Numbered from the stretch's first letter, positions 1,491-56,132 are shown. The stretch: DNA of 59,478 nucleotides from a virus (IMGVR_UViG_3300037313_001722:1-59478), one strand, 5' to 3'. The notes: generated from the letters alone by a model not told the origin. Translations and numbers: made by a program.

Positions 1491-2168
1491 TTACGAAATC
1501 AGGACATCCTTCATCCTCTGGGACAACAGGTTCATGCTCTTCACGATCGCGTCGGCCCGCCAGGAGATGACCGTCCGGAAGATGGAGAACAGGCGGTCCT
1601 GCCGGGAGCCCGAACGGGCCGCCTGGGTCCGGTCCTCCACGGTCCTGGCGCCGGAAGCCCTGCTGTCCACGTAGTGGCGGGCCAGGGACTGCTCCCAGAC
1701 GGCCTTGGCGAACTGGGAGTCCCCCTTGAGCATCGCGGCCGTCTGCTCCCACTGGAACAGCCGGGTCGTGATTTTAAAAAGGAAGTCCTTGATCTCCTTC
1801 GACCCCAGCCGGGAGTAGTCCTCGATGTAGGCGCCGGACTCCGTCCGCTCCCACACCGGGAAGCCGTTCTCGTCCTCCTCGATCTCACCGGTGGTCGGGT
1901 TGACCTTAGGCTCCCTAACGATCTCGTAGAGGTCGTTCATCACCTGGTAGGCGCCCGCGAAGTGCTCCAGGATCACGTTGTCGATGATCTGGTGCAGGCC
2001 CGCCACGGCCTCGGCGTCCTCGTCTCCCCACTCCAGCCGCATCCGGCTCAGGCCGGTCCCGGTGTTCTCCCGGGTCCGGTCGTCGTGCGGGTCCACCTCG
2101 GGCAGCCGGTCGGCCTCCTGGGACTCCTGCCGGACGAACCGCTCGACAATCCCCTCTTCGTCGCTCAC
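1491..2168 (-). CDS. Hypothetical phage protein
   Basis: GTG start overlapping upstream stop (GTGA); protein-like from VSDEEGIVERF. Confidence 0.75.
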   Translation of the reverse strand: MSDEEGIVERFVRQESQEADRLPEVDPHDDRTRENTGTGLSRMRLEWGDEDAEAVAGLHQIIDNVILEHFAGAYQVMNDLYEIVREPKVNPTTGEIEEDENGFPVWERTESGAYIEDYSRLGSKEIKDFLFKITTRLFQWEQTAAMLKGDSQFAKAVWEQSLARHYVDSRASGARTVEDRTQAARSGSRQDRLFSIFRTVISWRADAIVKSMNLLSQRMKDVLIS

Positions 2169-2797
2169 CACAACTCCCGGTGCAGGTGCCGCAGTCCGAC
2201 GAAGACGGCGTCCCTGACGTGCTCGGTCCACTGCCCCCGGCCGTCCGGCCGCCGGTCCTCCACGAGGGTCGCCACGAGGTTGCTGGAGACGCTCTTGGGG
2301 GCGTGCCGGTCGCCGCACAGGACGGCCCCGGCGGAGTTCCGGGACACCAGCACCGGCATGGACTCCCCCATCCGGTCCAGCTCCACACAGATGGTCACGG
2401 CGGCCACGAGGGAGGACTCCGTCCGGTATCCGAAGATCGAGGGCAGCTCGATGACCACTTGCTCATACCGGCCGTAGAGCTTGTTCAGCAGCTCCTGGAG
2501 CTGCCGGGCCAGCATGACGGACTTGGTCAGCGTCAGCTCGAAGCCCTTCGACTTCGTCTCCAGCGCCGGAGGCCGGATGGTGCCGGAGTCCTGGACGGAG
2601 ATCGTCCCGTCGTCGGTGTTCACCAGCGCCCAGCCGGAGTTGCTGAGGGACTGGTCGAAGCAGAGGATCTGGGTGTCCCATCGGAAGTCGGCAGCCGTCG
2701 GCGGCCGGTAGTCCCGGGGGACCTTGACGGTCTTGGCCCGCTGCACCTCCTCGCGTATGCGCTGGAGGACCTCTTCGGGTACGAGCAGTGTGTCCAT
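2165..2797 (-). CDS. RuvC-like Holliday junction resolvase
   Basis: ILCFDQSLSNSGWALV, VVIELP and HVRDAVFVG catalytic motifs; AGGAG RBS before ATG 2797. Confidence 0.8.
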   Translation of the reverse strand: MDTLLVPEEVLQRIREEVQRAKTVKVPRDYRPPTAADFRWDTQILCFDQSLSNSGWALVNTDDGTISVQDSGTIRPPALETKSKGFELTLTKSVMLARQLQELLNKLYGRYEQVVIELPSIFGYRTESSLVAAVTICVELDRMGESMPVLVSRNSAGAVLCGDRHAPKSVSSNLVATLVEDRRPDGRGQWTEHVRDAVFVGLRHLHRELW

Positions 2798-2817
2798 GGT
2801 TTCTCCTGGCGGGATCG

Positions 2818-3663
2818 TCACATCTTCTTGATCGGACAGGTGGTCGCCGGGCACGCGACGGCCTCCTTGGAGAACGGCGGGCAGCAGATCTCCGGCGGCT
2901 CACCGGCCTCCACGGCCTCGCGCACCAGCCGGTACTTGGCCTCCAGTTGAAGGGCGTAGTGCACGTCGTACTCGACGTGGATCTCCTTCAGGAGCCACGG
3001 CAGGCCCATGCCCATGAAGAGCATGACCACCATCCGCAGGCCGGACAGGGCCATGTACTCCTGCATCTGGCCGTAGTAATACGGGTGCTTCTCGATCAAC
3101 CACTTCAGGGCCTGAGCGCTCCCCGGATCGTCCGGGATCTTCGAGACCGAGAAGTGGTTAATGGTCTTCAGGTCGTAGCCGGTCATCCCGAGCTGCGGGG
3201 TCAGGACCACGCCGTCCATGTGGCCCCGCCGCCGCAGGACCGGATCGGCCACCCCGGGCTCGTCGCACTGCCCCGGCCCCGGCCCGTACGGGCGCCCGCA
3301 GCACGGGCAGTCCCCCTTGGGGATCTGCCAGTACCTCAGGTCGATCAGAGCCATCTTGACGATGCTGTGCATGAGGGTGCCGACGGTGACCGACATGCGG
3401 CCCTCGAAGGCCCACGGCTGCGGCTCCCAGAGCTTGGGCTCCTTGAGGTAGTAGTAGAGCTGCCGGGCCGTCATGGTCGGGTGAGTGGACGGGTGGAACC
3501 AGTCGTCCGGCTCCCGGTCCGGGTTTCCGCCGGGAAGCACGATCGTCGTGTTCTGGGGGAACCGGCCCTCGCCGATGTATCTGCGCACCGCAGGCGCGAG
3601 GACGGGCCCCACCGAAGTGGAGTCCCCCTCGCGCCGCAGTGCCGTCTCAGGATCGAACGTCAT
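2818..3663 (-). CDS. Cas4-like PD-(D/E)XK exonuclease
   Basis: FHPS, GTLMH, GHMDG, YDLKT, QMQEY and a C-terminal Cys cluster. Confidence 0.8.
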   Translation of the reverse strand: MTFDPETALRREGDSTSVGPVLAPAVRRYIGEGRFPQNTTIVLPGGNPDREPDDWFHPSTHPTMTARQLYYYLKEPKLWEPQPWAFEGRMSVTVGTLMHSIVKMALIDLRYWQIPKGDCPCCGRPYGPGPGQCDEPGVADPVLRRRGHMDGVVLTPQLGMTGYDLKTINHFSVSKIPDDPGSAQALKWLIEKHPYYYGQMQEYMALSGLRMVVMLFMGMGLPWLLKEIHVEYDVHYALQLEAKYRLVREAVEAGEPPEICCPPFSKEAVACPATTCPIKKM

Positions 3664-4202: not shown

Positions 4203-4561
4203 AGTTGCTCCTTCACGCTCTCGCAGTAGACGGCGACGTGCAGCAGGTTCATCGGGCCGGTCTCCGGCCAGGTGAGCACCTTCTCGCCGGGGTGAATCCT
4301 CCGGCCGTGGCAGACGCATTTCTTGGCAATCCCGGGGATGTCCGGGTCGTACGCCTGCCACTCCGGGAAGAGGCCGTCGGTGATGGTCCGGGGCTTGTCG
4401 GCCCTCCACTTCCGGCGCAGGACGATCCGGCGCTGAATCCGGAAGGCCATCGGAACGGCCAGGGCCATGGAGATCCCGACCAGGAGTCCGGTCACGAAGA
4501 GCGTGGCCTGGAACAGCCAGGTGACGATGTCGATTACGGCGGCAAGGGTTTCCATGGTCAT
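4187..4561 (-). CDS. Small membrane protein with Cys/His-containing C-terminus
   Basis: N-terminal hydrophobic helix; CVCHG...YC; ATGA overlap with recA stop. Confidence 0.65.
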   Translation of the reverse strand: MTMETLAAVIDIVTWLFQATLFVTGLLVGISMALAVPMAFRIQRRIVLRRKWRADKPRTITDGLFPEWQAYDPDIPGIAKKCVCHGRRIHPGEKVLTWPETGPMNLLHVAVYCESVKEQLWRAN

Positions 4562-5652
4562 CCCCGTCGGATCTCGAACTTGACTTCGGCCTCTACAGCG
4601 GGCTGCTCGGACTTCTCCAGGATGGCGGCCCGGACGGCCTCCAGGGCCTTCTCGTCCTCCCGCAGGCGGCGCATGACGGCCTTCTCGCCGTTCTCCTTCG
4701 AGCCGTCCGGGAAGAACCACCAGGAGCTGGTCTCCTTCTCCTTGTACAGCGCCCCGATCTTCATGGCGCGGTCCATGGTCTCCATGACCGCGTCGATGCC
4801 GACGGTGCCGTGCTCGGAGTCAACCTTGTGGTACCAGAACTCAGTCTTCTTGCCCTGGGCCACGAGCTTGGACCGCTCCACCCGGGCGGCCACCTTGTGG
4901 GCCACCTCGATGTCCGTGCCCTGGTCGTCCTTGACGGTCAGGATGTTCTCCGCGCCGCTCATCTTGCGCATCACCACGGAGTCCGTGGTCATGTAGCCCA
5001 TGATGATCGGGCCGGACGCCTTGTCATAGCCGGACTCGAAGTCCTTGCGGTACTGATTGACCTGCATCACGGCGGTGTTGGTCTGCCGGGAGATGCTCGC
5101 GACCTGCTTGGACATGCGGGTCAGGAGCTGGGCGGCCCGGCCCATGGTGACCTCGGAGGCCGTCTTCTCGTACAGCGTGTCCTCGCGCTCCATGGCTCCC
5201 ACCGAGTCGAGCGCGACGAAGGAGAACAGGCCGGTGCGCATGTCCTCGCGGAGCATGTCCACCACCTCCTCGGCGGAGTTGGGCTTCCGCCAGAAGAACC
5301 GGGGGTCGTCCGGGTCCAGGCCGTGGTCCAGAAAGCGCTCGTCGGTGACAGTGTTCTCGACGTCGATGTACGAAACGCCCTTGTCCGGGTACTGCTCCAG
5401 GGCGTTGATCATGGCGATGATCACCATGGCGGTCTTGCAGGATCCCGGCTGGCCGAGGACCTGGTGGTACCGGCCCCGAGCCCAGCCGCCTCCCAGCGCC
5501 GCGTCCAGACCGGCGACGCCGGTGGAGATGAAGTCCAGGGACCTCTCCTCCTTCTGTCGGACGAGCTGGGTGGGGTACTTCTTCTCCTGGGACGCCCGGA
5601 ACGCGGTGAGCGACGCGGGCGGCGTGTAAGCCTTCTTCGGCTTCGCAGGCAT
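4558..5652 (-). CDS. recA: RecA/UvsX-like recombinase
   Basis: ISTGVAGLDAALGGG, Walker A GQPGSCKT, YIDVE, VALDSVGA, VNQYR. Confidence 0.95.
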   Translation of the reverse strand: MPAKPKKAYTPPASLTAFRASQEKKYPTQLVRQKEERSLDFISTGVAGLDAALGGGWARGRYHQVLGQPGSCKTAMVIIAMINALEQYPDKGVSYIDVENTVTDERFLDHGLDPDDPRFFWRKPNSAEEVVDMLREDMRTGLFSFVALDSVGAMEREDTLYEKTASEVTMGRAAQLLTRMSKQVASISRQTNTAVMQVNQYRKDFESGYDKASGPIIMGYMTTDSVVMRKMSGAENILTVKDDQGTDIEVAHKVAARVERSKLVAQGKKTEFWYHKVDSEHGTVGIDAVMETMDRAMKIGALYKEKETSSWWFFPDGSKENGEKAVMRRLREDEKALEAVRAAILEKSEQPAVEAEVKFEIRRG

Positions 5653-5659
5653 GGTGCTC

Positions 5660-8600
5660 CTAGTGAACTGGCAGGTATTCCTGGACGATGAAGCCCTTGT
5701 CGTCTTCCTGCTTCTCCAGGACGACGAGGCAGAGCTGACCGGTGGTAAGGCCGGTCTGGATCTCCGTCCACTTGCGAGGAAAGCAGACGGCCTCCACGGT
5801 CGACAGCTCGGTGTCGAGCGTCAGGAAGGCCATCTCGTCCCCGCTGGCGCGGGTCTTGGTCTTGCGGATCCCCATCAGGATCGCGGCCACCGTGTAGAGC
5901 CTTCCGGCGGCCCCGTCGATCATCGCCTCGGCGTCCCCGTAGAGCCGCTCGCGGTCCTCTGGGTCCAGCCGGTCGAACGGCGTGGACGAGAGGAACACCC
6001 CGAGCAGCTCGTGCTCGATGGCGCGTATCGCCTCGTCGTCGTACGGCTCGACCGAGGACAGGTCCATCGGGTCCGGCGCCTTGTACTGGCGACAGGCCTT
6101 GGTGCACCTCTTCGGCGGGGGCTTGGGCTTGAGCTTCTTGCCGGTGCGAGGGTTGAGCGGCACGGACTCCGACGACCAGTCGAAGGAGCAGGGCAGGCCG
6201 GTCTCCTTGCTCAGGATCGGGATCTTGCGCACGCACACCGAGTCCTCGCCGGACTTGCGGTCCTCCAGCATCTTCACCAGGGCCGACCGGCGGGGCTCCA
6301 GGGAGTCCAGGGCGCCGATCCGGGCCAGCAGCATCTGGACGGCCGCGTTGGCCTTGGAGCCCTTCTGGGTCACGTACTCCTCGAAGGCCTCGTAGCTCGC
6401 GTAGGGCTGACCGGCGATCAGGTAGTCCACGGCGATCTCGCCGATGCCCTTGATCGCGTCCAGGCCGTACCGGACCGCGAGAGACTCCGCCTTGAAGCCC
6501 TTGCCGGAGGCGTTGATGTCCGGCGGCAGGACGGTATACCCGGCCCGGCGGACCTCCTTGATGAACTCGGGGATCCGGTCCTTGTCGATGGTGCTCAGGG
6601 CCGCCGTGAAGAACTCCACCGGATAGTGGAACTTCAGCCACGCCGTCCAGTACGCGAGGACCGCGTACGCGTAGGCGTGGGCCTTGCCGAAGGAGTACTT
6701 GGCGAACTCTGCCATCTGGTCCCACAGGTGGGACGCGGCCTCGCGCTCCATGCCGTTCTGCACGGCCCGGGAGACGAACTCCTGGCCCGCCGGGCCGATC
6801 TTCTCGATCTTCTTCTTGCCGAGGATCTTGCGGACCTCGTCCGCCTCGTCCGAGGTGTAGCCGCCCAGCAGGATGCAGGCCTGCATGATCTGCTCCTGGT
6901 AGATCATGCATCCCCACGTCGGACCGAGGACCTGCTCCATGCGCGGGTCCGGGTAGCTCACCGGCTCCAGCCCGGCCCGCCGCTTGAGGTAGGTCTCGGT
7001 CAGGCCGGACCGCATCGGGCCCGGCCGGACGAGGGTGATCATGTCGCACAGCTCCGGCAGGGACCGAGGGGCCATCCGCTGGCACAGCCGGGTTCCGGCG
7101 TGGGTCTCGATCTGGAAGATCCCCAGCGTCTTGGCCGCCGCGACCTCGTCCCACACCTGCGGGTCGGAGTACTCCTCCTTCCAGGAGTAGATCTCCACGT
7201 CGACCCCACGGTGCTCCTTGATCAGGTCGACCGCCATCTGGATCGTGTCCAGCGTCCTGATGGTCAGGATGTCGAACTTGACCAGACCGATGGCCTCCAG
7301 GGTCCCCATGTCGAACTGGGTGACCATGTTGCCGTCGTCCTCGCCGGAGGTCAGCGGGAGCCAGCTCGTCAGCGATCGGCCAGTGGAGATCACCACGCCC
7401 GCCGCGTGCTTGCCGTAGGACTTCAGGCGCCCCTGGAGCCGGTCGGCCATGTCGAAGAGTTCCGGGTACTTCTCGCGGTACGGCTGGAGGTCGTCCCCGA
7501 ACTGTGCCCACAGGTCGTCCCAGGCCATGCCCAGACCGGCCTTGTCGGACTCGGCGTTGTCGATGATCTTCGACACCGCCTTCATGTCCGCCTCGATCTC
7601 GGCCTTCTTGGCCGAGAGGGCCTCCCGGGCGACCTGCACGGCCATGGCGTCCACGTAGTCGTTGTTGTTCGCCAGGGCGTGATCCAGCACCCTCTGCTCG
7701 TCAGTCACCAGGACGGACATCATGGCCCGCTTCAGGTCCTTGACGATGCCTTTGGACTTCAGCCGCAGGTGGGTTCCGATCTGGACCACCTGGTCGGCGC
7801 CGTACTTCTCCCGCAGGTACCCGAGCATCTCGTCCTTCTTGGACGCCGGGAAGTCGCAGTCGAAGTCCGGCAGAGACGTCCGGCCCTCGGTCATGAACCG
7901 CTCGAAGGGGAGGTCTCCCTCCACCGGGTCGATCTCGGTGATGTCGCAGAGGTAGGCCACCAGGGAACCGCCGCCGGATCCCCGGCCGGGGCCGACCAGG
8001 ATTCCGTTCGACTTCGCCCACCGGCAGTAGTCCGAGACCATCAGGAAGTACCCGCAGAAGTCCTTCTGCTGGAGCAATTTAAATTCCCGCTCGAACCGCT
8101 CGATGTAGACGGCCTGGTCGTCCTGCTTGCCGGTTACCTTCTGCCAGTTCTCCAGGCAGAGGTCTAGAAGCCGCTCCGCGTCCCTCTCGTGACCACCCTT
8201 CTTCGAGAAGACCGGCGGTTCAGGAGAACCCCCAATGCGCGCACTCGTCCGCGAGACGAGGTCGAGCGAGTTACGGACTGCTTCATCGACCACCTCAGCA
8301 CCGAGGTATGCCAGCCCGCGCCGCACGCTCTCCTCGTCCTGGACGTAAAGATCGAGGTTGACCGCAAAGAGGTCTCCCTCGTCGTTGACGTCGGAGTTCG
8401 TCTGGATGGCGATCCAGGCCTCGTGGGCATCGTGGTCCTCCTTGCGGGGGTAGTGGGAGTCCACGGTGGCCATGAGCGGCACCCCGAACTCCTTGGCCAT
8501 GCCGACCAGCCCCCGGTTCACCTTCTCCTGCTCCGCGAGGGAGTTGGGCTGGATCTCCAGGTAGAACCGGTCGCCGTAGATGTCCAGGAGCTTGCCCAGG

Positions 8601-16123: not shown

Positions 16124-16140
16124 AGTCCATCCCCCTTTTT

Positions 16141-16181
16141 AAAAAGCCCGCCCCGCCGAAGGTCGGCTAAGGCGGGGCGGG
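16141..16181 (-). terminator. Intrinsic terminator/attenuator
   Basis: 11-bp stem CCCGCCCCGCC/GGCGGGGCGGG followed by TTTTT on the minus strand. Confidence 0.75.
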
Positions 16182-21270: not shown

Positions 21271-21437
21271 CGGAACCCCTTTTCGGGCCTTTTAAAAAGC
21301 AGAACCCCCCAAGGGATCCTTGGAGGGCTGCTTGCGGGGGTCCCCCTCGTACAAGGTACGATCCCCGGGTGAGCTGAAGGACGCCACATCCTCCAACTCG
21401 CAGTCCCCGACCGACTCTCACACCTGACGGGAACCGC

Positions 21438-25850: not shown

Positions 25851-25958
25851 TGCGGGACGGGGGATTCGCACCCCCAACAGGAAAGCCGGTAGACGGGACA
25901 TCCCGGCCCTGCGCGGTCCCTCCGAAGGATTCCCGTCCATGCGGAGGAGCCATCCCGC
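25851..25958 (-). ncRNA. tRNA-like module within the large RNA
   Basis: Acceptor-like GCGGGAT/GTCCCGC+A stacked on T-arm GGGGG-TGCGAAT-CCCCC; no canonical anticodon arm. Confidence 0.5.
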
Positions 25959-26194: not shown

Positions 26195-26205
26195 GTGGAT
26201 CAGGG

Positions 26206-26759: not shown

Positions 26760-26791
26760 GCATCCTCCTGATATCGTTAGGGTCTTCGCAT

Positions 26792-26866: not shown

Positions 26867-28420
26867 TCATTCCCCGAGCAGCATCTCGCGCCGCATGGCC
26901 GCCGTCAGGAACTCCGCTCCGTCTTCACCCGGACCGAGGAGCAGATCCGACTGCGCGTTGCCCCGGAGCATCGCGTAGACGAGGCCGATCTCCACCGTCT
27001 CGTTGGTGATCATCGAGCGGACGGTAGCCGTGGGGCCACCGGATCCGATCCGGCTGATCCGGTTCAGCCGCTGGGTCCTCAGGCCGTACGTCGTGGCGAC
27101 GTCGTACTCGACCAAGTAGGACGCCTCGGGGATGTTCACCCCTCGGGCCCCGGCGTCCGAGGTGAGCAGGACCGCGCCACCCTGGTGGACCTTGAACGCA
27201 TCCAGCTCGTGCAGGAAGAAGATCTTCATCCCGGCCTTGGTCAGGGCATCCGCCAACCACGGAAGGGCGCTCGGGCCAAAGAAGCTGAAGACCACCGCCT
27301 TGTCCTCCTGGTCCAGCACGATCGGCTCCAGGTAGGCCCTGAGCGCCTCCGTCTTGGCCGACGGGCAGTTCATCAGCCACTCGTGCCCGAATTCCTCCAC
27401 GAGCGTCCTGGCGAGCTTGCTGGAGCCCTCCTGGGCCGAATGGAGGAGCGCCCTCGGGTGGGCACAGATCTGCCGCAGGGCCTGGAGCTGACCACCCACC
27501 CCGTCCAGCTCGGCCACGAGGTCGTAGAGCTTCTTCTGGTCCCCCTCCAGGTCGACACGGAGGGGCTCCTCGGTCATCGCCGGGAACTGGTCGATGACGT
27601 CGGGGTCCGTCTTGCGCTTGGAGAGCATCAGGGGCTGGCAGAGGGCCGCGAACTCCTCAACCCGGTGGTCGAAGTACCTCGCTCGCCCGTAGATGTCCCG
27701 GCCCCGCACGAAGTACTTCTCGAACTCGCCGATCAGCGGCATGGCCTTCGGTCGCAGCAGCCGGAACTGGTGGAAGGAGTTCTCCAGATCCCTTCGGATC
27801 GAGGTGGCCGTCATCATGAACACCGGCAAGTTTTTAAAATGCTTCCGGAGGACCTTCAGGGTGTGCTCGTACGCCCCGTAGGTGGCCGAGGACCGGTTCG
27901 AGAGCTTGTCGGCCTCATCGAAGAAGACCACCGGCCTCCGGCCGGACGCGAGGATCTGCTCCAGCAGGTGACCGCTCTTGAACACCTTCCGGCGGCCGGA
28001 CTTGTCGATGGCCGTCAGGTCGGCCTTGCCGGTCTCGTACGTGGTGATCAGGACGTCCGGCAGCCCGAGCCTGGCCAGCTTGCTCTTGCGCGAGGGGCCG
28101 TGGTGGATCCGGGAGTCCAGGCGCGTGAACTTCTCGAAGTCGGCCTGCCACTCCTTGAGCTTGTTCCGCTCGCACACGAGGATCACGAGGTCCGCGATGC
28201 CGTCCTCGAAGGCCAGCGCGGAGAGCTGCATGGCCGCGTGGGACTTCCCCAGGCCGGTGTCCCAGGAGAACATCCACTCCGGCTGTTCGCCGCTCTGGAC
28301 GCCCACGTACGCCTGCGCGATGTGCTCTATCTGAAACGGATAGAGACCTCTGGGGCTCCAGTAAAGAGCCCCCTCCGGCCAGTTGGCATCGAAGGGGGCT
28401 TCTATCAGGGTCGTCGTCAT
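26867..28420 (-). CDS. SNF2-family helicase/ATPase
   Basis: DTGLGKS, ITTYE, FFDEAD, MTAT, LRQICAHP, SDAGARGVNI, QRLNRISRIG. Confidence 0.9.
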   Translation of the reverse strand: MTTTLIEAPFDANWPEGALYWSPRGLYPFQIEHIAQAYVGVQSGEQPEWMFSWDTGLGKSHAAMQLSALAFEDGIADLVILVCERNKLKEWQADFEKFTRLDSRIHHGPSRKSKLARLGLPDVLITTYETGKADLTAIDKSGRRKVFKSGHLLEQILASGRRPVVFFDEADKLSNRSSATYGAYEHTLKVLRKHFKNLPVFMMTATSIRRDLENSFHQFRLLRPKAMPLIGEFEKYFVRGRDIYGRARYFDHRVEEFAALCQPLMLSKRKTDPDVIDQFPAMTEEPLRVDLEGDQKKLYDLVAELDGVGGQLQALRQICAHPRALLHSAQEGSSKLARTLVEEFGHEWLMNCPSAKTEALRAYLEPIVLDQEDKAVVFSFFGPSALPWLADALTKAGMKIFFLHELDAFKVHQGGAVLLTSDAGARGVNIPEASYLVEYDVATTYGLRTQRLNRISRIGSGGPTATVRSMITNETVEIGLVYAMLRGNAQSDLLLGPGEDGAEFLTAAMRREMLLGE

Positions 28421-34853: not shown

Positions 34854-37800
34854 TTATGAGCCGGTGTAGACGAACGAGGACGGCATGACCGAGGTGTCCG
34901 GGGCGGCCGGAGAGCCCTCGTTGACGCCATCGGGGACGGTGTCCGGCAGGAAGGACCGCTGCGGGACCGGGGTCGGTGTGACCTGCTGCCGCAGCCACTG
35001 GCGGTAGATGTACCACCAGTCCTGGGGGATCGCGTGGTGCCAGGCCTTGAACATGGGGTCGTCGGAGACGTCCGGGTTCTGGTCCAGCGGCGAGAGGTTG
35101 GGGCCGCCCTTCTGGACGGAGTACCGGGCGGGCATCCCCATCATCACGGACTCGAACCAGGGCCGGATCTGAAGAGCCGAGATCGAGAGGTCGGGGGCGG
35201 CCCCGGTGACCCTCCAGACCAGCGCGGATCCACTGGTGGCGGACTGCTGGTCCACGCCCTCGGGGAACAGGAAGACGCCGTTGGGGTCGTTGCGGATGTC
35301 CCAGACGGGCCAGAAGGTCTGTCCCCCGTCCCGGCTGAACTCCCACATGATCGAGTCGTTGAAGACCGAGATGTTGTCGACGTAGAAGACGTCCGAGGTG
35401 GCCTGCTGCTGGAAGAGCTGGACCTTTACGTCAAAGACCTCGCGGTCGACCGTACCGGCCGCCACGTCGTTCCAGGTCCCGATCAGGTCCATGCCGTCCC
35501 AGGTGGTGGCCAGGGCCTCCACGTCGGTCCACAGCCGGGTGCCGTCCGGGACGGCACCGGTGCCGATGTTGTACTCGACCGACCACTCCACGATCTGTCC
35601 GGCGGACGCGGTGACGGGCTCTTCGGCCAGTACCGTCCCGTCTCCGTTGAGGAGCTGGAGGTACACCGGGGCGGAGAGGGTCTTCGGGGCCAGGATCCGG
35701 GCTGCCGCGTAGAGCTTGCCGATCGGCGAGACGCTCAGGGACTCGAAGGACTGGATGCCGCCCTGGGAACCCACCTGGATCTTTCCGGAGATCGAGTCGT
35801 AGGTGGGCAGGTAGGGGTTGGGGTCGGAGTCCTCGATCTGGTCCCAGGTGCCGATTTCCTCCATCGAACTCCAGGTGACCGGTTCACCGGCCCGGGTGAT
35901 CTTCACCAGGGATCCGACGTCGGTGTTGAAGTACGGATCCGGCGTGATCTTCGCATCCCCCATCGGCTGCCAGTACTGGAGCGAGGTGTCATCGAAGTCG
36001 GGGTCCGTCAGGAGCTGCTTCGGAGGGCTCTGGGTCGTGGCGAACTGGATGCCCCGGATGGCCCGGAAGGAGTTCAGCGGCTTGGAAGTGATCGTCAGGG
36101 GCTGGCCGACCGAGGGAGGAGTGAAGATGCGCCCCTCCTCCAGGCTCCAGGAGGTGCTGTCGCTGGCGTCGTAGTCCAGGTCGTTCGCGTCGTGGAACAG
36201 CTCCATGTACTGGTCGGTGTCATCGGCGATCTGATGGTCGACCCGGTACATGACGATGTCGCTGAGGCCGACGAAGTAGGCCACGCGCATGTTCGTCTGG
36301 ACCGAGATGGTCTCGTAGTAGTGCCTGCCGCTGCTGGAGTGGCGGGGCATCGTCGGAGACGGCTGCTGCTTGGAGAAGTTCCAGTACGGAGCCGCCTTGG
36401 CCATCAGGGCCGCTCCCTGCGGGTCCTTCACGTACTGGGCCTCGGTCGGCAGGTAGGTGGCCGTGCTGTTCAGGGCCACGGCCTGGGTGCCGTTGGCCGT
36501 GAGCCGGTTCTGGTCGTTGAACCGGTTGACTGCGGCCTTCTCCACGTTGGCCTGCATGCCGTAGCCGCCGGTGTTCGGCGAGTCGGCCGCAGCCCTCGCG
36601 AGAGACGACATGGCCTGCTGGTTCTGAGCAAAGATCTTCGCCGTCAGAACCACGGGCGCGTCGGTCTCGTGCGGTTCCGCGATCAGGTTCGAGAACTCGA
36701 AATTAAAAAAGCGGGCCTTGGTCGGGTCGAACTCGTAGAAGCCCTTCTTGAGCTGGTAATCCCGGCCGATCGGGGTCCAGTTCAGCTCCTCGTAGACCAC
36801 CCCGGGGCCGCCCAGGAAGCCGAAGGGGTTCAGCGAGTCCAGACCCTCGGTCTGGTGCTTCGGGTCGTACCGCAGGATCGCGTTGTCCGTCGTCTGCTTG
36901 CCCTGCGGGTACTCCGGGGTGACGACGAAGCCGGAGGGGTCGGTCCAGTACTGAACGAACTCGCCCTCGCCGTCGGGGTTTCCCTTCTTGATGTACATCG
37001 AGACGAGCCGGGCGTTCGCCGGGGTGGACTGGGTGGGGTCCACGGTCAGCGAGCCGCCGATGCGCAGGGTAGAGGGCCGGGTGGTGCCCGGCACGATCTC
37101 ACCGGACATCGAGGTGATCGAGACGAAGTGGGCCGTGCCGTCCGGGAAGATGAGCGTCTCGGTGGTGTAGACCGAGCCGTCGTCGGCGACGACCTCCGAG
37201 ATCTGGTCCCTCGTCTCCTCCTGCCCAGTGTCCGGGAGCGGGGTGTGGATCGTCAGGTCCTGGCCGTCGAAGCTCAGCACGAACCGCAGACGGGCGTTGA
37301 AGTCGAAGACGAGGCCGGGCCAGCTCAGCAGGATCGTGCCCAGGGAGACCTGGAAGACGCTCGTGCTGACAGTGCCCGACGGGTCGGGGCCGAAGAAAAT
37401 CTTCAGTACGCCGTCGTCGTAGATGACCGAGCTACCAGTGTCCGTGCTCGGGAACTGCGGCTGGACCACCATGCCGAGCTGGAACGGCTTGGTGGGGTCG
37501 AACTGGACGGCCTTGTTGTCGATGTCCACGAAGGCCGTGGTGGTCGGGAAGAGGATCCCGTCGCTCAGAGGCGCCGGAGGAGTGGCGCCGAACGACCGGC
37601 TGTTCGGGAAGGCCAGCGGGGTGTCCGGGGCCGGGAAGACCTCGGGGTCCGGCTCGTCCATCGAGTAGTAGATGTTGACCGTGGATCCGGTGTGGAGCGG
37701 GTCCAGGAAGAACTTATCCACAACCTGTGGATCGCCCTGTGAATTACGGGCGTCCACATACAGGTTGACCACGGCGGTGGCCAGAGGCTGCGGTGCGCAC

Positions 37801-43029: not shown

Positions 43030-45600
43030 TCAGCTCGCAATCAGGCCGCCCGCGCGGGGCAGGCCGATCAGGACGTCCGCCGCGTCGCCGGTGTCGCTCA
43101 GCCGGGCGGGCGCAGAGATGTTCGCCGAGGTCTCGAAGTAGCCGTTGTCCCCGAACTCCCAGGAGTGCGTCACGGAGTTGACGTAGCCCTGGAAGGAGAA
43201 CGCGGGGACCTGAAGGAGCATGCCGGGGTACAGCTCCGGCATGAAGGTCAGCGGGATGTCCGCGTTGTACTGGTAGGCCCACTGGCGCATGAAGTAGTAG
43301 ATCGAGGCGAAGAACTCTGCCGACGGGCCGACCAGGTTCGGGAGCTGCTGGAAGTCCGGCCGGGCCCCGAAGCGCTGGTAGATCCACTTCGAGAAGTTCT
43401 CGGCCTGAGCCGTGGTGGGGTTGATTTTAAAAAGGGCGTACATCATCGCCGGGACGTCGATGGACGCGATGCCCCGGGTGTAGCTCAGGTTCTGCGCGAC
43501 CACCAGCGGGTCCAGGGCCGCACCGACCAGAGACGTGACCTGCCCCGTGGCGAGGTTCAGTCCGTTTTGGCCCGCGCCGCCCTGCGGCGTCGTCGCGGTG
43601 AACTGGTGGGTCACGAAGAAGCTGTCGTCCCAGGTGACCGAGAAGTCTTTGACCTCGATCGGCTGGACGACCATCTTGGCCGCCGTCCCCCACAGCCCGT
43701 AGTAGTCCGGGAACCACGCGATCAGGTCCCCGTTCGGGGCCGAGCAGAAGGACCGCATGGTCGCCGAGAAGAGATTCTTCAGGTAGGGCAGAAGGGGCTG
43801 ATCGTTCATCAGCGACTTAATGCCCGTAAGGGACTGGCTCAGGATGTATTCGGGGTCGTTCTTCTGGCTGGCCACCGGCTGCCAGACGGTGTCCCCGAAG
43901 AGCTTGTCGAAGGGGTCGTTCGCGTTGTAGCCCGGAGTGTTCGAGTACGGATCGGTGTAGATCGTCTTCTCGGCCGCACCGGCACCCGGGGTGTCGGTGA
44001 CCGACCCTCCCCCGGCGTCGCCGTCGCCCATGCCGAGCTTGCCGTAGTTGATCCTCGGCACGAGGCCGCCGGAGTCCCAGTAGGACGCCGTGGTGGACTC
44101 GATGGAGGCGTTCGTGCCCGAGTGGTGGGCGCCCACAGAGTGCTTGCCGTCGCCGATGGACATCTCCACGTGGAACGGCGGGGACCCCTTGAAGAGCAGG
44201 GCTCCCGGGGTCTTCATGGCCGTGGCGACGTCGATGGACCGGCAGTACGGCTTCTGGGTCTCCGAGGTGCGCGGGAAGCCGTACAGGCCACCCAGGGTCC
44301 GCAGGACGACCGCCTGAACGAAGGACGAGCAGTCCAGTCCAGGGGGCGGGTCGGCCGACAGGATGTCTATCTGGGTCCCGCCGTACTTCTGGGTGTACGG
44401 GATGTTCGGGTACGTGGTGACGAGGTCCTTGGCGACCTGGATGAACTGGTAGTTGGTCGCGGTGCCGGTGGCCTTGGTGGACGGCTTGGACTCGGTGGAG
44501 TTCTTCGACCCGGAGCCGGTGACCGTGCTCGTGCCACCGCTCTTGGCCATGTCGTTGACCATCTGGGTGGCGGCCTTCTCGTGCTTGGCGTAGGCGTCCG
44601 GGTAGGCGGAGCGCTGGACGGCCTGGCACTGCTGGGCCTTGGTCATCTTGTCGCGGTTGTGGATGTTGAACAGGGCGGAGAAGAACTTCTTGGCCGCGTG
44701 CGTCGGGTCGGTGACCTGCTCGTAGGTTCCCCAGCCCTGGGAGGGCCTCTGCTGGAAGAGGCCTGCTGAGTCGGCGTCTCCGCCCTTGAGGTTGACGAGG
44801 CCGGACTCCTGCATGGCCGTCATGATGGCCACGATCTGGTCGCTCTGGGTGGCACCCATGGACCGGCCCGCGTTGTAGATCAGGACGCCGTTCTTCTTCT
44901 GCTCAGCGGAGTTGTAGCCGCCGTACTGCCCATTAAGGCCGGAGGTGTCGGCCTCTCCCCCGGATGTGCCGACGGTCCCGGCGCCGCCCAGAGACTGGAA
45001 GAACTGCTGGGCCAGGTCGTCCGATTCCTGTGCGCTCTTGTCGACGGCTTCGGCGATCTTGTAGGCCGTCTTGAACCAGTCGTCGGGGATCTTGGCGATG
45101 TGGACCTTGGACTCGGGCCAACCCACGACCTCCTTCAGCACGGACAGCACCACGTTGGTCATGCCGCCGTCGGAGTTCATACCCGTTCCCTGGGCCGCCG
45201 ACAGGGCGTTCATGATCATCTGCTGGGTGTAGGCCGACTCCGGGTCCCAGTACCAGTACTGGAGCCGCTTGAGGGAGCACGAGGCCGTCAGCTCCACGTC
45301 CCTGGGCCAGCCCGTCATGAGCGGGACGGAGTTCAGGTATCCGGTGAACACCCGCAGCCACGTCACGCGCTTCATGAGCACGGTGATGCGGTCGTTGGGC
45401 GTGAAGACCTGGTCGTACTTCCTGCGCTGGTTGGTCAGCGTGAGCTGGAGGTCGGACACGCCGTCGACCCGGCGGGTGAGCCGTCCCCGGACAATGTCGT
45501 CGGAGACGTCCAGCGTCTGCGGCCGGACGTTCTTGTTCAGGATGTTGCCGCCGGTCTCCACGTAGACCTTGATCTGCGGCGCGTAGATGAACGATGGCAT
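43030..45600 (-). CDS. Baseplate hub with inserted lysozyme-like and NlpC/P60 peptidoglycan hydrolase domains
   Basis: AMQESGL...DSAGLFQQRPSQGWG; GLDCSSFV...PGALLF...HVEM. Confidence 0.85.
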   Translation of the reverse strand: MPSFIYAPQIKVYVETGGNILNKNVRPQTLDVSDDIVRGRLTRRVDGVSDLQLTLTNQRRKYDQVFTPNDRITVLMKRVTWLRVFTGYLNSVPLMTGWPRDVELTASCSLKRLQYWYWDPESAYTQQMIMNALSAAQGTGMNSDGGMTNVVLSVLKEVVGWPESKVHIAKIPDDWFKTAYKIAEAVDKSAQESDDLAQQFFQSLGGAGTVGTSGGEADTSGLNGQYGGYNSAEQKKNGVLIYNAGRSMGATQSDQIVAIMTAMQESGLVNLKGGDADSAGLFQQRPSQGWGTYEQVTDPTHAAKKFFSALFNIHNRDKMTKAQQCQAVQRSAYPDAYAKHEKAATQMVNDMAKSGGTSTVTGSGSKNSTESKPSTKATGTATNYQFIQVAKDLVTTYPNIPYTQKYGGTQIDILSADPPPGLDCSSFVQAVVLRTLGGLYGFPRTSETQKPYCRSIDVATAMKTPGALLFKGSPPFHVEMSIGDGKHSVGAHHSGTNASIESTTASYWDSGGLVPRINYGKLGMGDGDAGGGSVTDTPGAGAAEKTIYTDPYSNTPGYNANDPFDKLFGDTVWQPVASQKNDPEYILSQSLTGIKSLMNDQPLLPYLKNLFSATMRSFCSAPNGDLIAWFPDYYGLWGTAAKMVVQPIEVKDFSVTWDDSFFVTHQFTATTPQGGAGQNGLNLATGQVTSLVGAALDPLVVAQNLSYTRGIASIDVPAMMYALFKINPTTAQAENFSKWIYQRFGARPDFQQLPNLVGPSAEFFASIYYFMRQWAYQYNADIPLTFMPELYPGMLLQVPAFSFQGYVNSVTHSWEFGDNGYFETSANISAPARLSDTGDAADVLIGLPRAGGLIAS

Positions 45601-46536: not shown

Positions 46537-47249
46537 TGGTCCTGCCGATCAAGGGTCGTGTCCGGCGTGACATCCGGATGGCTCTTTTTAAATTCCTTCT
46601 CCCATTGGGCACTTGGGGTCGATCCGCCGTTGTAGGCCGTGAACTTCCAGCCGATGCCCTGCGAGATGCGGGCAATGTAGGCGTCCACGGCCTTCGCTCG
46701 GGCCTGGTCCAGGACGCCGTTGGACATACCGGCCTTGGTCAGCTCCGTGGACCCCTCCTGGATCGGGAAGAGGGTGAGCACGTACCGGTAGTTCGCCCGG
46801 CCGACCCGGTGGACCACTCCGGCCGTACCGTCTCCGTCGGGGTCCACGATGGACTTGATGTAGCACTGGAATCGCAGGCCCTTGGGCGAGTACACGAAGG
46901 TCGCGGGCTCCAGGAAGAAGTTGTCCCCCTTCCCGGCGGACCCCGGCGTGTTCGCCCCGGCGCTCTGGAGCTGCTGGAGGGCCTGGATCTGAAGGAAGAA
47001 CTGGGAGGCCAGCTTCCAGGAGACGCCCGGGTGCTCTCCCCCGTTCGACCCCCGGCCCATGTTGTGGGCCTCGCCGATGGACCCCTGGACCACGACGTCG
47101 GACACCGTGGTGCCGAGGACCTGGATCACCCGGCCGCCCACGGTGTTGATCACCGACGTGTGGACCTTGATGTTGTAGTCGAACGACTCGGGGTCCACTC
47201 GGAACGTGATGGAGGGACCGTTGGCGAAGCCCAGTTTGGCCAGTCCCAT
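46533..47249 (-). CDS. Tail tube initiator-like protein
   Basis: FRVDPESF...TVGGRVIQVLG; directly after tape measure. Confidence 0.6.
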   Translation of the reverse strand: MGLAKLGFANGPSITFRVDPESFDYNIKVHTSVINTVGGRVIQVLGTTVSDVVVQGSIGEAHNMGRGSNGGEHPGVSWKLASQFFLQIQALQQLQSAGANTPGSAGKGDNFFLEPATFVYSPKGLRFQCYIKSIVDPDGDGTAGVVHRVGRANYRYVLTLFPIQEGSTELTKAGMSNGVLDQARAKAVDAYIARISQGIGWKFTAYNGGSTPSAQWEKEFKKSHPDVTPDTTLDRQDQ

Positions 47250-47250
47250 G

Positions 47251-50800: not shown

Positions 50801-50810
50801 GTCGTCCGCC

Positions 50811-51317
50811 CTACTTGTTCAGGGCCGAGGTGTGCGTGTAGGCCACCGTGATGCCCTTGGTCACGGCCAGGGAGCCGACCGTGATGGTGTCGCCGTCGTT
50901 GATGTCCACCACGGTGCAGTTGTGGTAGTTCTTGCCGCGCCAGGCGCCCGGGTTGTTCTGGGTGCCGGGCGGTTTGATGACCGTTTGGCACGTGACGTAA
51001 TTCGGGTCGTTGGCCAGCAGCCGGAAGATGTCCACGATGTTCTTCGAGCCCGCGAGGCCGGAGAGCTGCTCCCACACGTAGCCGTTCCACAGCTCGCGGA
51101 TGGTGAGGATCAGCGTGCCGCCCTGGAGGACTCGCGAGGTGGCGATCTCCACGGGGTGCGAGGCACCCAGGGGCTGGATGAACTGGTACGGCTGTCCGAG
51201 GTCGCTAAATGCTCGTTGACCACTATCCTCAACTCCTTCGCAGAACGCGATCCCCTTACCCTTGTAATAAAAGGTAGTGAACCCGCTTCCTACGACCCTG
51301 ACCTTAGTCTGGGGCAT
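50811..51317 (-). CDS. Tail tube protein
   Basis: 168 aa, downstream of sheath; GGAGGAGG RBS. Confidence 0.8.
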   Translation of the reverse strand: MPQTKVRVVGSGFTTFYYKGKGIAFCEGVEDSGQRAFSDLGQPYQFIQPLGASHPVEIATSRVLQGGTLILTIRELWNGYVWEQLSGLAGSKNIVDIFRLLANDPNYVTCQTVIKPPGTQNNPGAWRGKNYHNCTVVDINDGDTITVGSLAVTKGITVAYTHTSALNK

Positions 51318-54649: not shown

Positions 54650-55356
54650 CAGCGGGTCTCCAGGATCTGCCGCCAGTTGCGGTCACAGAGGTACACACGG
54701 GTCGGGAGGATGCCGTTCCACTGTGCGGCCAGCGTCACCGAGTTGTTCAGGAAGAGCCGGGGCTGGATGCCCGGGTGGCGCCACCGTACGCCGACGTTCC
54801 CCGGGGCGATCTGGCCGCCCTTCCCGCCGGGCCGCGTCCAGGGCTGACCGACCTCCCGGCGGGAGATCCGGCCCGGGGCGCCGGGGTAGCTCGCGGGCTT
54901 GTCGGAGACGACGATCCGGTTGCCGTTGCGGTCCTTGCCGTACTTGGTGATCCTCTGGCCGATGTTGGCAGCACGCCGGAAGATCAGGACCTGGGTTTTG
55001 CCGGAGGCCGTGGTGCGGACCTTCGCCTTGGGATTGCGGGACCGCTCAATGCCCGTGGGGTCATCGATCCACATCGGGATCGTCTTGCCCGCCAGATTGC
55101 GCATGGTGAACGGCCGGATGCCGTGGTCCTGGAACCAGACGTACGAGTCGGCCCACCACAGGCCGAAGTAGCCCTTGCCGTACAGGGGCTGGATCCGGGC
55201 GGCTGAGGCGCCGGACATCTTCGGCATCTTGCGGCGGCACTCCCTCACGGCCGCCAGAGCCGCCGCGCGGGCCCGACCGGGGCTCAGGCCCTTGACGATC
55301 ATGATGATCCGGTCAGGCTCCTCGGCGATCTTGAACTCGGCGGTTTCGAGGAGCAT
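54649..55356 (-). CDS. Neck/tail completion protein
   Basis: Basic protein; FQDHGIRPF...WRHPGIQPRLF. Confidence 0.6.
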   Translation of the reverse strand: MLLETAEFKIAEEPDRIIMIVKGLSPGRARAAALAAVRECRRKMPKMSGASAARIQPLYGKGYFGLWWADSYVWFQDHGIRPFTMRNLAGKTIPMWIDDPTGIERSRNPKAKVRTTASGKTQVLIFRRAANIGQRITKYGKDRNGNRIVVSDKPASYPGAPGRISRREVGQPWTRPGGKGGQIAPGNVGVRWRHPGIQPRLFLNNSVTLAAQWNGILPTRVYLCDRNWRQILETR

Positions 55357-55359
55357 GGG

Positions 55360-56121
55360 TCACCAGTCGTCCGGGTCTTCGTAGTCGGGGTGATCGGGCA
55401 TCCGGCCCTCGTCGTCCGGGAAGCCGTGCTCGTCCGCGTCGTAGTGCCAACCCATGATGTGGCTGTCCCCGCGCTGAAGGGCTGCGGCAGTCCGGTGGTG
55501 GCCCTCGGTGGCGTGCAGGCGGCCCTCGTGGGTGACGAACATCGGGGCGCCGTCGCCCAGGTAGTTGCTGTTGCCCGTCGTCTCGCCGTACTTCTCCCTG
55601 TGGTGGCTCGTGGCGCCCGGGTCGGCCAGGTACTTGTCGATGTGCGCCTGGGAGACGTGGCTCTGGGTGGCGTAGACCGGCTGCTTGAGGTTCACCGCGC
55701 CGTAGGTGGCGTGCTGCTGCCAGTGGTGAGTGTTGGTCCCGTGTTCGCTGACGAAGCGGTGGAGTTGACCATCTTCGAGGTCGGGCTCGTTCTCCTGCTG
55801 CCTCTTGGTCAGGGCGTCCTGGTACGCCTGGTCGCGGCGATCCTCGTAAGACTCTGGGTATTCGTCGTGCTCGTCGTAGTGCCGCTGCTCGTGCGAGGTC
55901 GGATCGACTTCGAGATTGTCCCAGAGGTCCTCGTCAAAGCCGCCGTGACTCTGCCCCCCGTCCTCGTCGTAATCGTCATCAGAATCTCGGCCGACGTACC
56001 CGGCGAAGCCCGCGTGGCGCACGGACTTTGCGTGCTGGGCGTAGTGCTCTTCGCCCGGCTCGACCTGCCAAGCCATGCCCTCCCGCTGAAAGGCAGCGGC
56101 CCTCTTCCACAAGAGGCTCAT
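55360..56121 (-). CDS. ParB/Sulfiredoxin-like domain protein with acidic N-terminus
   Basis: YATQSHV...PMFVTHEGRLHATEGHHRTAAALQRG. Confidence 0.65.
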   Translation of the reverse strand: MSLLWKRAAAFQREGMAWQVEPGEEHYAQHAKSVRHAGFAGYVGRDSDDDYDEDGGQSHGGFDEDLWDNLEVDPTSHEQRHYDEHDEYPESYEDRRDQAYQDALTKRQQENEPDLEDGQLHRFVSEHGTNTHHWQQHATYGAVNLKQPVYATQSHVSQAHIDKYLADPGATSHHREKYGETTGNSNYLGDGAPMFVTHEGRLHATEGHHRTAAALQRGDSHIMGWHYDADEHGFPDDEGRMPDHPDYEDPDDW

Positions 56122-56132
56122 ATTTAAATTCC

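Follow-up and report, generated by a model that had tools for sequence, protein, structure and literature searches.

A dispersed 10-bp A/T palindrome in a GC-rich tailed-phage genome: a probable DNA-level docking signal and its mutual exclusion with phage lsr2

Introduction

Short DNA sites recurring over a whole replicon are known from several systems. The stoperators of Cluster A mycobacteriophages (L5/Bxb1-type) are asymmetric, GC-containing sites that are oriented with transcription and bound by the immunity repressor of these temperate phages. Dispersed operators on large replicons include the KorB OB sites of RK2, the conserved inverted repeats of phiC31 and the sopC sites of N15, and UP elements are sites for the C-terminal domain of the RNA polymerase alpha subunit (alpha-CTD) at about -42 and -52 of bacterial promoters. 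This study deals with the IMG/VR record IMGVR_UViG_3300037313_001722, a soil-phage stretch of 59,478 bp analysed at its full length (the window), and with a 10-bp all-A/T element centred on TTTAAA (the box) that is dispersed over its genes and intergenic regions. As judged from its abundance, symmetry and turnover, the box is very likely a selected signal on duplex DNA at which a protein docks. Stoperators lie genome-wide in short intergenic gaps and in genes and are read by one protein (PMC9283540, PMC6550527). For the Lsr2-type protein CgpS, nucleation at a 10-nt AT motif and the need for a wider GC drop for silencing are described in PMC7002338, and an 8-nt AT-rich optimum for Lsr2 of M. 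tuberculosis is cited in PMC6584129.

With stoperators, the boxes share the tens of dispersed copies of one short site (8 in the 59-kb window; 19, 16, 22 and 12 in complete relatives). Unlike stoperators, they are symmetric and all-A/T, lack a single orientation (off-centre variants occur in both in relative G7) and are found in genomes without recognisable repressor, integrase or partition genes. Like the nucleation motifs of Lsr2 and CgpS, the box is an all-A/T element of about 8–10 nt standing out of GC-rich DNA; the contiguous A/T runs span 9–11 bp at 8/8 window sites and 10 bp at 18/18 sites of relative G16. Known Lsr2/CgpS targets are long, loosely defined and silenced AT-rich drops, whereas the boxes, as far as can be read from sequence alone, are isolated, exactly 10 bp long, placed in genes and evenly spread. 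Instead of a broader GC drop they have G/C-rich flanks from the first outside base, and instead of a loose definition they almost always follow the order T-run then A-run. UP elements resemble the boxes in being A/T tracts upstream of -35, and promoter-linked boxes lie at two distances one helical turn apart; they differ in that most window boxes are far from any promoter and that the box is a strict palindrome. Similarly to KorB OB, phiC31 and N15 sopC sites, the boxes are palindromic, occur at multi-kb intervals on a replicon of 40–150 kb and are located partly at promoters and partly in genes. Those operators have the gene for their cognate protein on the replicon; for the boxes none was found, and no ParA/ParB homologue either.

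Stoperators are already known, as are A/T elements upstream of promoters and AT motifs at which Lsr2-type proteins nucleate. What sets the boxes apart is the combination of an all-A/T palindrome of fixed length, even multi-kb spacing in a 66% GC phage, insertion into essential genes via rare codons and amino-acid replacement, exclusion with phage lsr2, and an approximately thousand-fold lower frequency in the presumed host. No published account of this combination of properties was found in the literature searched.

Results and Discussion

Abundance of the box in the window

The window has a GC content of 66.3% and is estimated to be about 40% complete. Its genes were called based on GC content at third codon positions (GC3), and the assignment of boxes to coding or intergenic DNA rests on these calls. 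The sites are as follows:

1771..1780, ATTTTAAAAA: box in gene 1491-2171 (-), reading CTT TTT AAA ATC (L-F-K-I)
8076..8085, AATTTAAATT: box in the DnaE-type gene 5660-9490 (-), reading GAA TTT AAA TTG (E-F-K-L)
16136..16145, TTTTTAAAAA: intergenic box; gene 15740-16123 (-) starts 12 nt downstream of it
21290..21298, TTTTAAAAA: intergenic box between the divergent DinG-like gene (19155-21209, -) and the + strand block from 21438
27831..27840, TTTTTAAAAT: box in the SNF2-family gene 26867-28420 (-), reading CAT TTT AAA AAC (H-F-K-N)
36700..36710, AAATTAAAAAA: variant A/T run in the tail gene 34854-38546 (-), reading CGC TTT TTT AAT TTC
43424..43433, ATTTTAAAAA: box in the NlpC/P60 hub-like gene 43030-45600 (-), reading CTT TTT AAA ATC (L-F-K-I)
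46585..46594, TTTTTAAATT: box 52 nt before the stop of gene 46533-47249 (-), reading GAA TTT AAA AAG (E-F-K-K)
56120..56130, ATATTTAAATT: intergenic box filling the spacer between the Shine-Dalgarno (SD)-like AAGGAA and the ATG of gene 55360-56121 (-)

TTTAAA was observed 8 times, whereas 100 dinucleotide-preserving shuffles contained 0.33 copies on average and never more than 2 (0/100 reached 8). The lengths of A/T runs in the window are bimodal (6 bp, five runs; 7 bp, none; 8 bp, one; 9 bp, one; 10 bp, six; 11 bp, two). No copy of AAATTT was found in the window, and any other A/T-only hexamer outside the boxes is present at most once. Five of the 8 TTTAAA copies lie in coding sequences, each as TTT-AAA (Phe-Lys) on the - strand, with neighbouring codons that are rare (CTT, GAA, CAT, TTG). 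In pooled synonymous-codon shuffles the mean number of in-gene copies was 0.042 and none of 1000 shuffles reached 5. Phe-Lys dipeptides number 23 in the window, where P(TTT|Phe) is 0.044 and P(AAA|Lys) is 0.037. In-gene counts in two relatives, G3 (7 vs 0.022) and G2 (3 vs 0.016), likewise surpassed the codon-aware null, so that the excess amounts to about 100-fold or more in all three. Intergenic copies also exceeded the expectation from base composition (window, 3 vs 0.15; G3, 12 vs 0.44; G2, 3 vs 0.09).

These results bear on a sequence-only reading of the window, in which nine sites had been listed; all nine were recovered at their coordinates. Its statement that every TTTAAA has an extended A/T flank agrees with the 9–11 bp all-A/T runs found around all 8 copies, and the proposed excess over a codon-aware null was borne out by a wide distance. 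Six of nine sites in coding sequences, including dnaE, SNF2 and the hub, are obtained as claimed when the variant at 36700 is counted with the five TTTAAA copies. This variant is one base short of TTTAAA and is located mid-way in an otherwise 15.6-kb gap; accordingly, the claimed spacing of 3–10 kb holds with the variant and fails without it. The GC content had been put too high, at about 70%.

An origin of the boxes as by-products of composition, mutation bias or assembly artefacts is hardly conceivable, and no observation speaks for it. Composition and codon usage are rejected by the dinucleotide shuffles, the run-length counts and the codon-aware null. With respect to artefacts, boxes recur in relatives that were assembled independently, and those at 1771, 8076 and 16136 are bridged by contigs of four other soil/rhizosphere runs; no box difference was found among 40 of the 612 sequence differences to these contigs.

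Symmetry and fixed length of the motif

A profile was derived from 33 sites of the window, G2 and G3, which were aligned in the direction of the coding strand at each site. It reads G(-3) W T TTTAAA A W C(+8) (W, A or T), i.e., a 12-bp palindrome G-WTTTTAAAAW-C without strand bias. Flanking positions are occupied by G or C at -3/-4 and +8/+9 and show background composition beyond; within 20 bp on either side of these 33 sites no further conservation other than codon periodicity was detected. Although 201 of 202 called genes of G7 share a strand, this genome contains three copies each of ATTTTTAAAT and its reverse complement. The A/T runs of G16 are exactly 10 bp long in 18/18 cases. Among the 19 runs of at least 8 bp in G3, all contain TTTAAA and 13 are exactly 10 bp long. 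Boxes almost always consist of a T-run followed by an A-run, AAATTT being found 0–1 times per genome (one copy in G3). Lineage variants were observed in G13 (GGATTTTAAAATCC), G16 (ATC-ATTTTAAAAT) and G7 (G-ATTT-WW-AAAT-C). Further all-A/T 10-mers, namely ATTTTATTTT with five copies in G16 (586, 27582, 44327, 93628, 94109; mostly upstream of promoters) and ATTTATTTAT with two copies in G9 (7685, 37070), suggest the existence of sister motifs of the box.

Symmetry, strand indifference and fixed length point to recognition of duplex DNA rather than RNA. Action of the boxes as RNA, i.e., as terminator U-tracts after hairpins, as A/U spacers aiding translation starts or as RNase sites, is accordingly very improbable. 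It would account for those intergenic boxes that directly follow a GC hairpin (about one third, as counted by eye) or fill SD-to-ATG spacers (about one quarter). On the - strand, the box at 16136 directly follows such a hairpin (arms 16147-16157 and 16171-16181) and the box at 21290 follows another (approximately 21299-21331), both read from the sequence. The motif is symmetric, however, and occurs in both orientations on the single coding strand of G7; in-gene sites have neither a nearby hairpin nor a start codon, and boxes lie anywhere between -2 and over 1000 nt from start codons.

Distribution among relatives, cultured phages and Streptomyces genomes

Among cultured phages, the top match of the window's DnaE is that of Rhodococcus phage E3 at 33%; there is hence no close cultured relative, and no DNA-level match to the window was obtained in the phage collection. 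The capsid protein of a close relative retrieved 270 related loci in IMG/VR, from which 80 were taken and 28 scored for boxes. The same query retrieved contigs or plasmids of 151–157 kb in four Streptomyces assemblies with about 80% capsid-protein identity. Since these capsid relatives reside in Streptomyces assemblies, the family comprises large Streptomyces-type tailed phages, and in these isolates its members are kept as extrachromosomal contigs. One of them, pRLB1-9.1 (NZ_CP041653.1), is a circular Streptomyces plasmid with an annotated HK97-fold capsid protein, ParA and integrases and is a phage-plasmid branch of the family. Besides ParA, its genes include those for two tyrosine recombinases, WhiB and helix-turn-helix (HTH) regulators.

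Box counts were paired with a backwards-read control, given in brackets. TTTAAA was counted 8 (0) times in G1, 6 (0) in G2, 19 (1) in G3, 3 (0) in G6 and 16 (0) in G7, of which G3 (156 kb) and G7 are complete. Corresponding values for WTTTAAAW were 7 (0) in G11, 4 (0) in G12, 22 (0) in G13, 12 (0) in G16, 11 (1) in G20 and 4 (0) in G28, with G13 and G16 being complete. Relatives thus carry the same box. By comparison, 0–1 boxes were found in the relatives of similar GC content G8, G9, G10, G14, G17–G19, G21–G27 and G29–G38 as well as in five cultured actinophages of 136–154 kb, and in G10 (154 kb) there is no A/T run longer than 5 bp. Based on the topology of a tree of 23 shared proteins, ((G7,(G3,G13)),(G16,(G18,G27)),(G10,G21)), boxes are present in at least two separate lineages, and a low-resolution tree of the capsid protein alone hints at a third (G20/G28). 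G5 and other distant DnaE relatives (25–51% GC) were set aside as uninformative. Three such low-GC relatives (L018, L024 and L025; about 20 kb, 37–49% GC) have 0 TTTAAA vs 11–23 AAATTT, an opposite pattern, such as might result if a DraI-type restriction site is avoided.

Four Streptomyces genomes (8.1–10.2 Mb), each with a relative of 151–157 kb, contain 1–2 copies of WTTTAAAW each vs 8 in the window, so that the box is about a thousand-fold rarer than in the phage. For a protein that prefers this word, practically all targets would thus lie on phage DNA, which fits the earlier idea of landmarks separating phage from host DNA. For the same reason, the host is unlikely to have a protein dedicated to this sequence.

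Gain, loss and replacement of boxes

Among the X-Phe-Lys-Z peptides able to host a 10-bp A/T run, 5/7 are written as boxes in the window, 7/13 in G3 and 3/15 in G7, compared with 0/5 in each of the box-free genomes G10 and G8. Five of the six unused peptides in G3 lie 0.6–2 kb from another box.

The origin of individual sites can be read from orthologous positions. The SNF2 box, with the peptide (H/V)FK(N/I), is found at identical codons in the window, G2, G6, G3 and G13; the residues at this position are unrelated in G7 and in all outgroups (KYP.., VHP..). The hub box (LFKI) is common to the window, G3 and G13; outgroups have LFG(L/I), G6 has CTC TTC AAG GTC and G7 has ATG TTC AAG GTC. Intergenic boxes are kept at the same position in G2 and G3 (16136) and in G2, G6 and G3 (21290); the spacer at 56120 has a box also in G7 and G13 and none in G3. 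Boxes in DnaE and in genes 1491-2171 and 46533-47249 are specific to the window or to the window and G2, relatives having Ala, Ser or Arg for Lys. At 1771, G2 reads TTT AAG, G3, G7 and G8 encode LFRI, and G10 encodes LFKI written CTG TTC AAG ATC. The box at 8076 is shared with G2 only (G3, EFAL; G7, EFSL; G8, EFKM written TTC AAG), and the position of 46585 encodes EFRK in G3 (GAG TTC CGC AAG) and DFAK in G7. Moreover, G2 encodes a DnaE (25611-30269, L044) of 1552 amino acids vs 1276 in the window, and its extra segment, possibly an intein, has a box of its own (RCVFKNDE). At the variant site 36700, 12/12 aligned relatives have TTC, ATC or TGG followed by AAG and never TTT or AAA; in the window alone, the conserved RFFK(F/L) has changed from TTC TTC AAG to TTT TTT AAT, including a Lys-to-Asn replacement.

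Sites were also created by amino-acid replacement, from VHP to VFKN in SNF2, from LFG to LFK in the hub and from Arg or Ala to Lys elsewhere. Sites thus turn over by synonymous and amino-acid gains, by losses and by nearby replacements, a pattern expected if number and spread, not exact position, are under selection. Relatives with TTC-AAG at a box position and no compensating site had been named as counter-evidence; where relatives have TTC-AAG, a replacement box is found nearby, as in the close relative G6, which lacks the hub box and has one about 3 kb off.

Placement, promoters and spacing

In G3, 12 of 19 boxes are located in the non-coding 7.9% of the genome. Intergenic boxes occupy SD-to-ATG spacers (56120 in the window; several in G7, G13 and G16), the first few bases past stop codons, the apex or 3' side of GC hairpins (16136 and 21290 in the window; four long palindromes in G13) and positions just upstream of a promoter family TTGACN-CTCCAAGAATCCTTGGAG-TAGNNN. 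Boxes are hence placed where they are least harmful: in intergenic gaps, SD-to-ATG spacers, hairpin apexes and Phe-Lys codons.

Boxes just upstream of a TTGACN-CTCCAAGAATCCTTGGAG-TAG core were counted by eye in 13/18 cases in G16, 8/23 in G13, 6/19 in G3 and 1/8 in the window; the latter, 21290, lies 14 nt upstream of a -35-like TTCCGC in the conserved core (- strand). A regular-expression scan located a core within 40 nt of 19/108 A/T runs. Promoter counts were made partly by eye, the first regular expression having missed most promoters, and the fuzzy search matches both strands of the palindromic spacer. Gaps between box and core cluster at 8–12 nt (8 cases) and 19–23 nt (8 cases), about one helical turn apart, placing the box near -44 or -55. 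In full, the promoter family consists of TTGACN, the palindromic spacer CTCCAAGAATCCTTGGAG and TAGTAAC, after which CTTGAC-N4-GTCAAG and a leader ACTCC..AGGAGG are often found. About 30 copies are found in intergenic DNA of G3 (approximately 53–98 kb, L028-L030) and others in the window near 18.76 and 21.25 kb (-), and box-free relatives have the family too.

The two clustered gaps in this subset would suit UP-element-like sites for alpha-CTD, and the G16 variant ATTTTATTTT resembles the distal UP subsite consensus. As a general explanation this is unlikely. An A/T tract at -38 to -59 of a sigma-70-type promoter was found at 21290 in the window and, by eye, at 13/18 sites in G16, and not at in-gene or SD-spacer sites; most boxes of the window, G3 and G7 are far from any recognisable promoter. 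Furthermore, a box is lacking at most promoters of the TTGACN class (in G3 at about 24 of some 30, counted by eye; in box-free G10 at all core matches), and even spacing with gap-filling inside long genes would not be expected of UP elements.

Spacing was more even than random in G3 (coefficient of variation 0.56, P=0.004; P=0.007 for the smallest gap, 1964 bp), in G13 (P=0.006–0.009) and in the window (8 TTTAAA copies, P=0.047; 10 A/T runs taken together, P=0.0006). As these three genomes are related, their tests are not independent of one another. In G7 there is weak evenness (P=0.03 or 0.25). Even spacing goes along with the writing of boxes into long genes. Regular spacing, as anticipated in the sequence-only reading, thus applies within the subclade of the window, and the selected genome-wide cis code at the DNA level proposed there is in agreement with the excess over the codon null and with relatives, compensation and spacing.

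Even spacing in this subclade would also suit easily melted or nicked sites for replication or recombination, serving helicase loading, unwinding or T5-like nicks. The boxes are the sole all-A/T 10-mers in 66% GC DNA, and the phage encodes DnaB-like, DnaC/IstB-like, primase-like, RecA-like, SNF2 and DinG-like proteins. We regard this explanation as quite improbable, since iterons or other conserved flanking bases are absent, no box-specific nuclease or initiator was found, and neither the placement upstream of promoters nor the lsr2 exclusion described below is predicted by it.

Mosaic-boundary hotspots were considered as well. In G3, 8/19 boxes lie within 150 nt of an edge of G3/G13 homology (P=0.0008). 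The other comparisons disagree (reverse G13 comparison, 5/23, P=0.16; G3/G7, P=0.72; window/G3 and window/G2), and homology edges and boxes both favour gene ends, so that a link of boxes to mosaic boundaries is at most tentative.

Mutual exclusion with lsr2 and candidate readers

The lsr2 gene (PF11774) was detected in 6/6 complete box-free genomes (G10, G18, G21, G27, G32, G34) and in 0/4 complete box-bearing genomes (G3, G7, G13, G16). For these 10 complete high-GC family genomes Fisher's exact test yields 1/210, uncorrected for relatedness. G15 was left out of the count, being complete but with a locus of 49% GC and no enrichment of the motif. Among partial contigs, lsr2 was present in 0/8 with boxes and 3/18 without. 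The gene is located beside the exonuclease gene in G10 and in the tail module in G18 and G27; these different modules suggest separate acquisitions. Many mycobacteriophages require Lsr2 of the host by a mechanism not yet defined. According to PMC10066036, actinophages use host Lsr2, and phage lsr2 genes are common and have no known role; PMC8612146 reports Lsr2 homologues in about 35% of Streptomyces phages.

Of the explanations considered, we tentatively favour one in which the boxes are isolated nucleation sites and are read by a nucleoid protein of the Lsr2 type, with a preference for AT, from the actinobacterial host. The mechanism that we infer from the observed non-randomness, symmetry, turnover, placement and lsr2 exclusion would run as follows. 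The box, a short all-A/T palindrome of two 5-bp A-tract half-sites about a central TpA and bounded by G/C, would provide high-affinity, phage-specific landing sites every 7–8 kb or so on a GC-rich phage chromosome. Each isolated 10-bp A/T patch could nucleate Lsr2 binding and bridging, and without AT-rich flanks a silencing filament could not spread from it. The phage would thereby collect Lsr2 on its own DNA, as Lsr2-dependent phages seem to need for replication zones, and relatives with their own lsr2 gene could dispense with boxes. Boxes located 2–6 or 13–17 bp upstream of -35 elements would probably double as upstream promoter elements. A further step, which we consider less likely than not, is that boxes and phage lsr2 are interchangeable ways of putting an Lsr2-type protein on GC-rich DNA, that lineages switched between them more than once and that the host protein is hijacked without silencing. 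The need served by either would then be replication zones or genome organisation, and the cis code would turn a host xenogeneic silencer pro-viral, outweighing codon usage and protein sequence.

Several points weigh against Lsr2 as the reader. The exclusion comprises 10 related genomes with perhaps 2–3 independent transitions, and harm done by A/T tracts in the presence of a phage Lsr2 would be enough to produce it. Nor is the alternation general: boxes and lsr2 are both absent from five large cultured actinophages and from pRLB1-9.1 (150 of 154 kb examined). A Streptomyces-type host of the window is itself inferred only from the relatives with about 80% capsid-protein identity. In PMC7002338 and PMC6584129, Lsr2 is described as having little sequence specificity, with no consensus from 223 Streptomyces sites, and the M. 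tuberculosis protein as having no TpA preference; the strict order of T-run then A-run, with AAATTT found 0–1 times per genome, therefore speaks for a more specific reader. Finally, spacing is not even in G16 (P=0.31–0.75), where 13/18 boxes (by eye) lie upstream of promoters, so that a plain promoter element explains G16 without Lsr2.

A more specific reader would be at hand if the boxes were operators of a phage-encoded, sequence-specific dimeric DNA-binding protein that regulates some promoters and elsewhere blocks or organises transcription in the manner of stoperators. The strict palindrome, the fixed 10-bp length with G/C borders, the lineage-specific variants GGATTTTAAAATCC (G13), ATC-ATTTTAAAAT (G16) and ATTT-WW-AAAT (G7) and the box in the divergent control region at 21.3 kb speak in its favour, as does the near-absence of the box in hosts, which makes a dedicated host protein unlikely. 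We nevertheless consider such operators somewhat unlikely: no candidate reader was found, nor a repressor, integrase or ParA like those of pRLB1-9.1, 201/202 called genes of G7 are on one strand, and the lsr2 exclusion is left unexplained.

The search for a phage-encoded reader covered several candidates. The product of gene 55360-56121, previously regarded as ParB-like, has no Pfam or PHROG match, and its G3 neighbour at this position has only a weak match to an Arr-like ADP-ribosyltransferase domain. ParA of pRLB1-9.1 had no tblastn match in any of 15 genomes, and homologues of its repressor-like HTH, integrase and ParA proteins were not found; ParB/parS was rejected, as no ParA/ParB homologue was found. 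MerR-like and sigma-region-4-like proteins are conserved in box-free relatives too. Of the three readers suggested earlier, the ParB-like protein is thus unsupported and the MerR-like protein is kept where boxes are absent, while host Lsr2 gains indirect support from the exclusion.

WhiB with an AT-hook was dismissed because WhiB is missing from the window, G3, G7, G10 and G8. The Ant-domain protein has AT-hook motifs (KRGRP/RGRGRP) in the window and G2; the motif is missing in G3 and the gene is unmatched in G7, so that this candidate was dropped as a general reader. The KRGRP-bearing Ant-domain gene 24405-25361 (+) contains ATTTTT (24592-24597) and AAAAAT (24612-24617) as an inverted pair 14 bp apart.

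A promoter of a phage RNA polymerase was rejected, since a tail spike and an Arr-domain protein, and no polymerase, account for the large proteins encoded beside a co-occurring gene in G3. Only three G3 proteins track the boxes, being present in G7, G13 and G16 and absent from the complete box-free genomes G10, G18, G27 and G21 as well as from the partial genomes G8 and G9. They are an acidic protein of 137 amino acids, a tail-fibre-like and a minor-tail-like protein, none of which looks DNA-binding; their correlation with boxes may just reflect shared ancestry or host. A frameshift site is incompatible with the frame, which is unfit for a slippery heptamer, and with the many intergenic sites. 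A DraI-type restriction site was discarded because phages avoid such sites and do not accumulate them.

If correct, these results would provide a clean natural example of a DNA-level code beating codon choice and amino-acid sequence in a virus, and a sequence-based approach to the question of how host Lsr2 is recruited, or coped with, by actinophages. The box/lsr2 exclusion makes the purpose of phage-encoded Lsr2 directly testable. Owing to its approximately thousand-fold rarity in Streptomyces, the box also offers a phage-specific tag for pull-downs, imaging and engineering.

Gene content of the window and further observations

Nearly all genes of the window are on the - strand, exceptions being a block at approximately 21.4–25.4 kb and gene 51619-52281. 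The following products were assigned, and other tail and baseplate genes are also present:

4558-5652: RecA-like protein
5660-9490 (-): DnaE-type polymerase, 1276 amino acids
11568-15242: primase-like, DnaB-like and DnaC/IstB-like proteins
16308-17177: 5'-3' exonuclease
17429-17908: MerR-like protein, borderline match (21.8 bits vs a cut-off of 21.6)
19155-21209 (-): DinG-like helicase
24405-25361 (+): Ant-like anti-repressor domain gene
26867-28420 (-): SNF2-family helicase
34854-38546 (-): tail gene
43030-45600 (-): NlpC/P60-domain tail/hub-like protein, 856 amino acids

Many small proteins have no family assignment, and a PDB sequence search with the 325-residue protein of 21438-22415 returned 0 matches. 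Gene 51619-52281 (+), on the opposite strand within the tail module, resembles a homing endonuclease with several HTH domains and a weak His-Me finger match. It adjoins an 8-bp A/T run, TAATAAAA, at 51265-51272, which belongs to the 5' portion of a tail-tube-like gene, 50811-51317 (coding strand, ACC TTT TAT TAC).

Weak Arr-like (rifampin ADP-ribosyltransferase) domains were found in G3 genes 5190-5993 and 26339-30082 (L026, L027), one of them in a protein of 1247 amino acids; they recall the T4 enzymes Alt and Mod that modify the RNA polymerase alpha subunit. The accessory genes of G3 (46429-48147 (+), 50093-51133, 60778-61185, 44575-45150) comprise Ro60/TROVE plus vWA beside an 890-nt gene-free stretch, a Thg1-like tRNA-His guanylyltransferase, a Tad2-like anti-Thoeris domain fused to a T7 gp5.9-like RecBCD inhibitor motif, and a dCTP deaminase, in this order. 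Furthermore, a GAAGGGGTGA(A/G)GAC element recurs 20–40 nt upstream of the starts of G3 structural genes (140589, 30082, 22229, 13334, 9402; L026-L027, L032-L033) and may represent a late promoter or an extended ribosome-binding signal.

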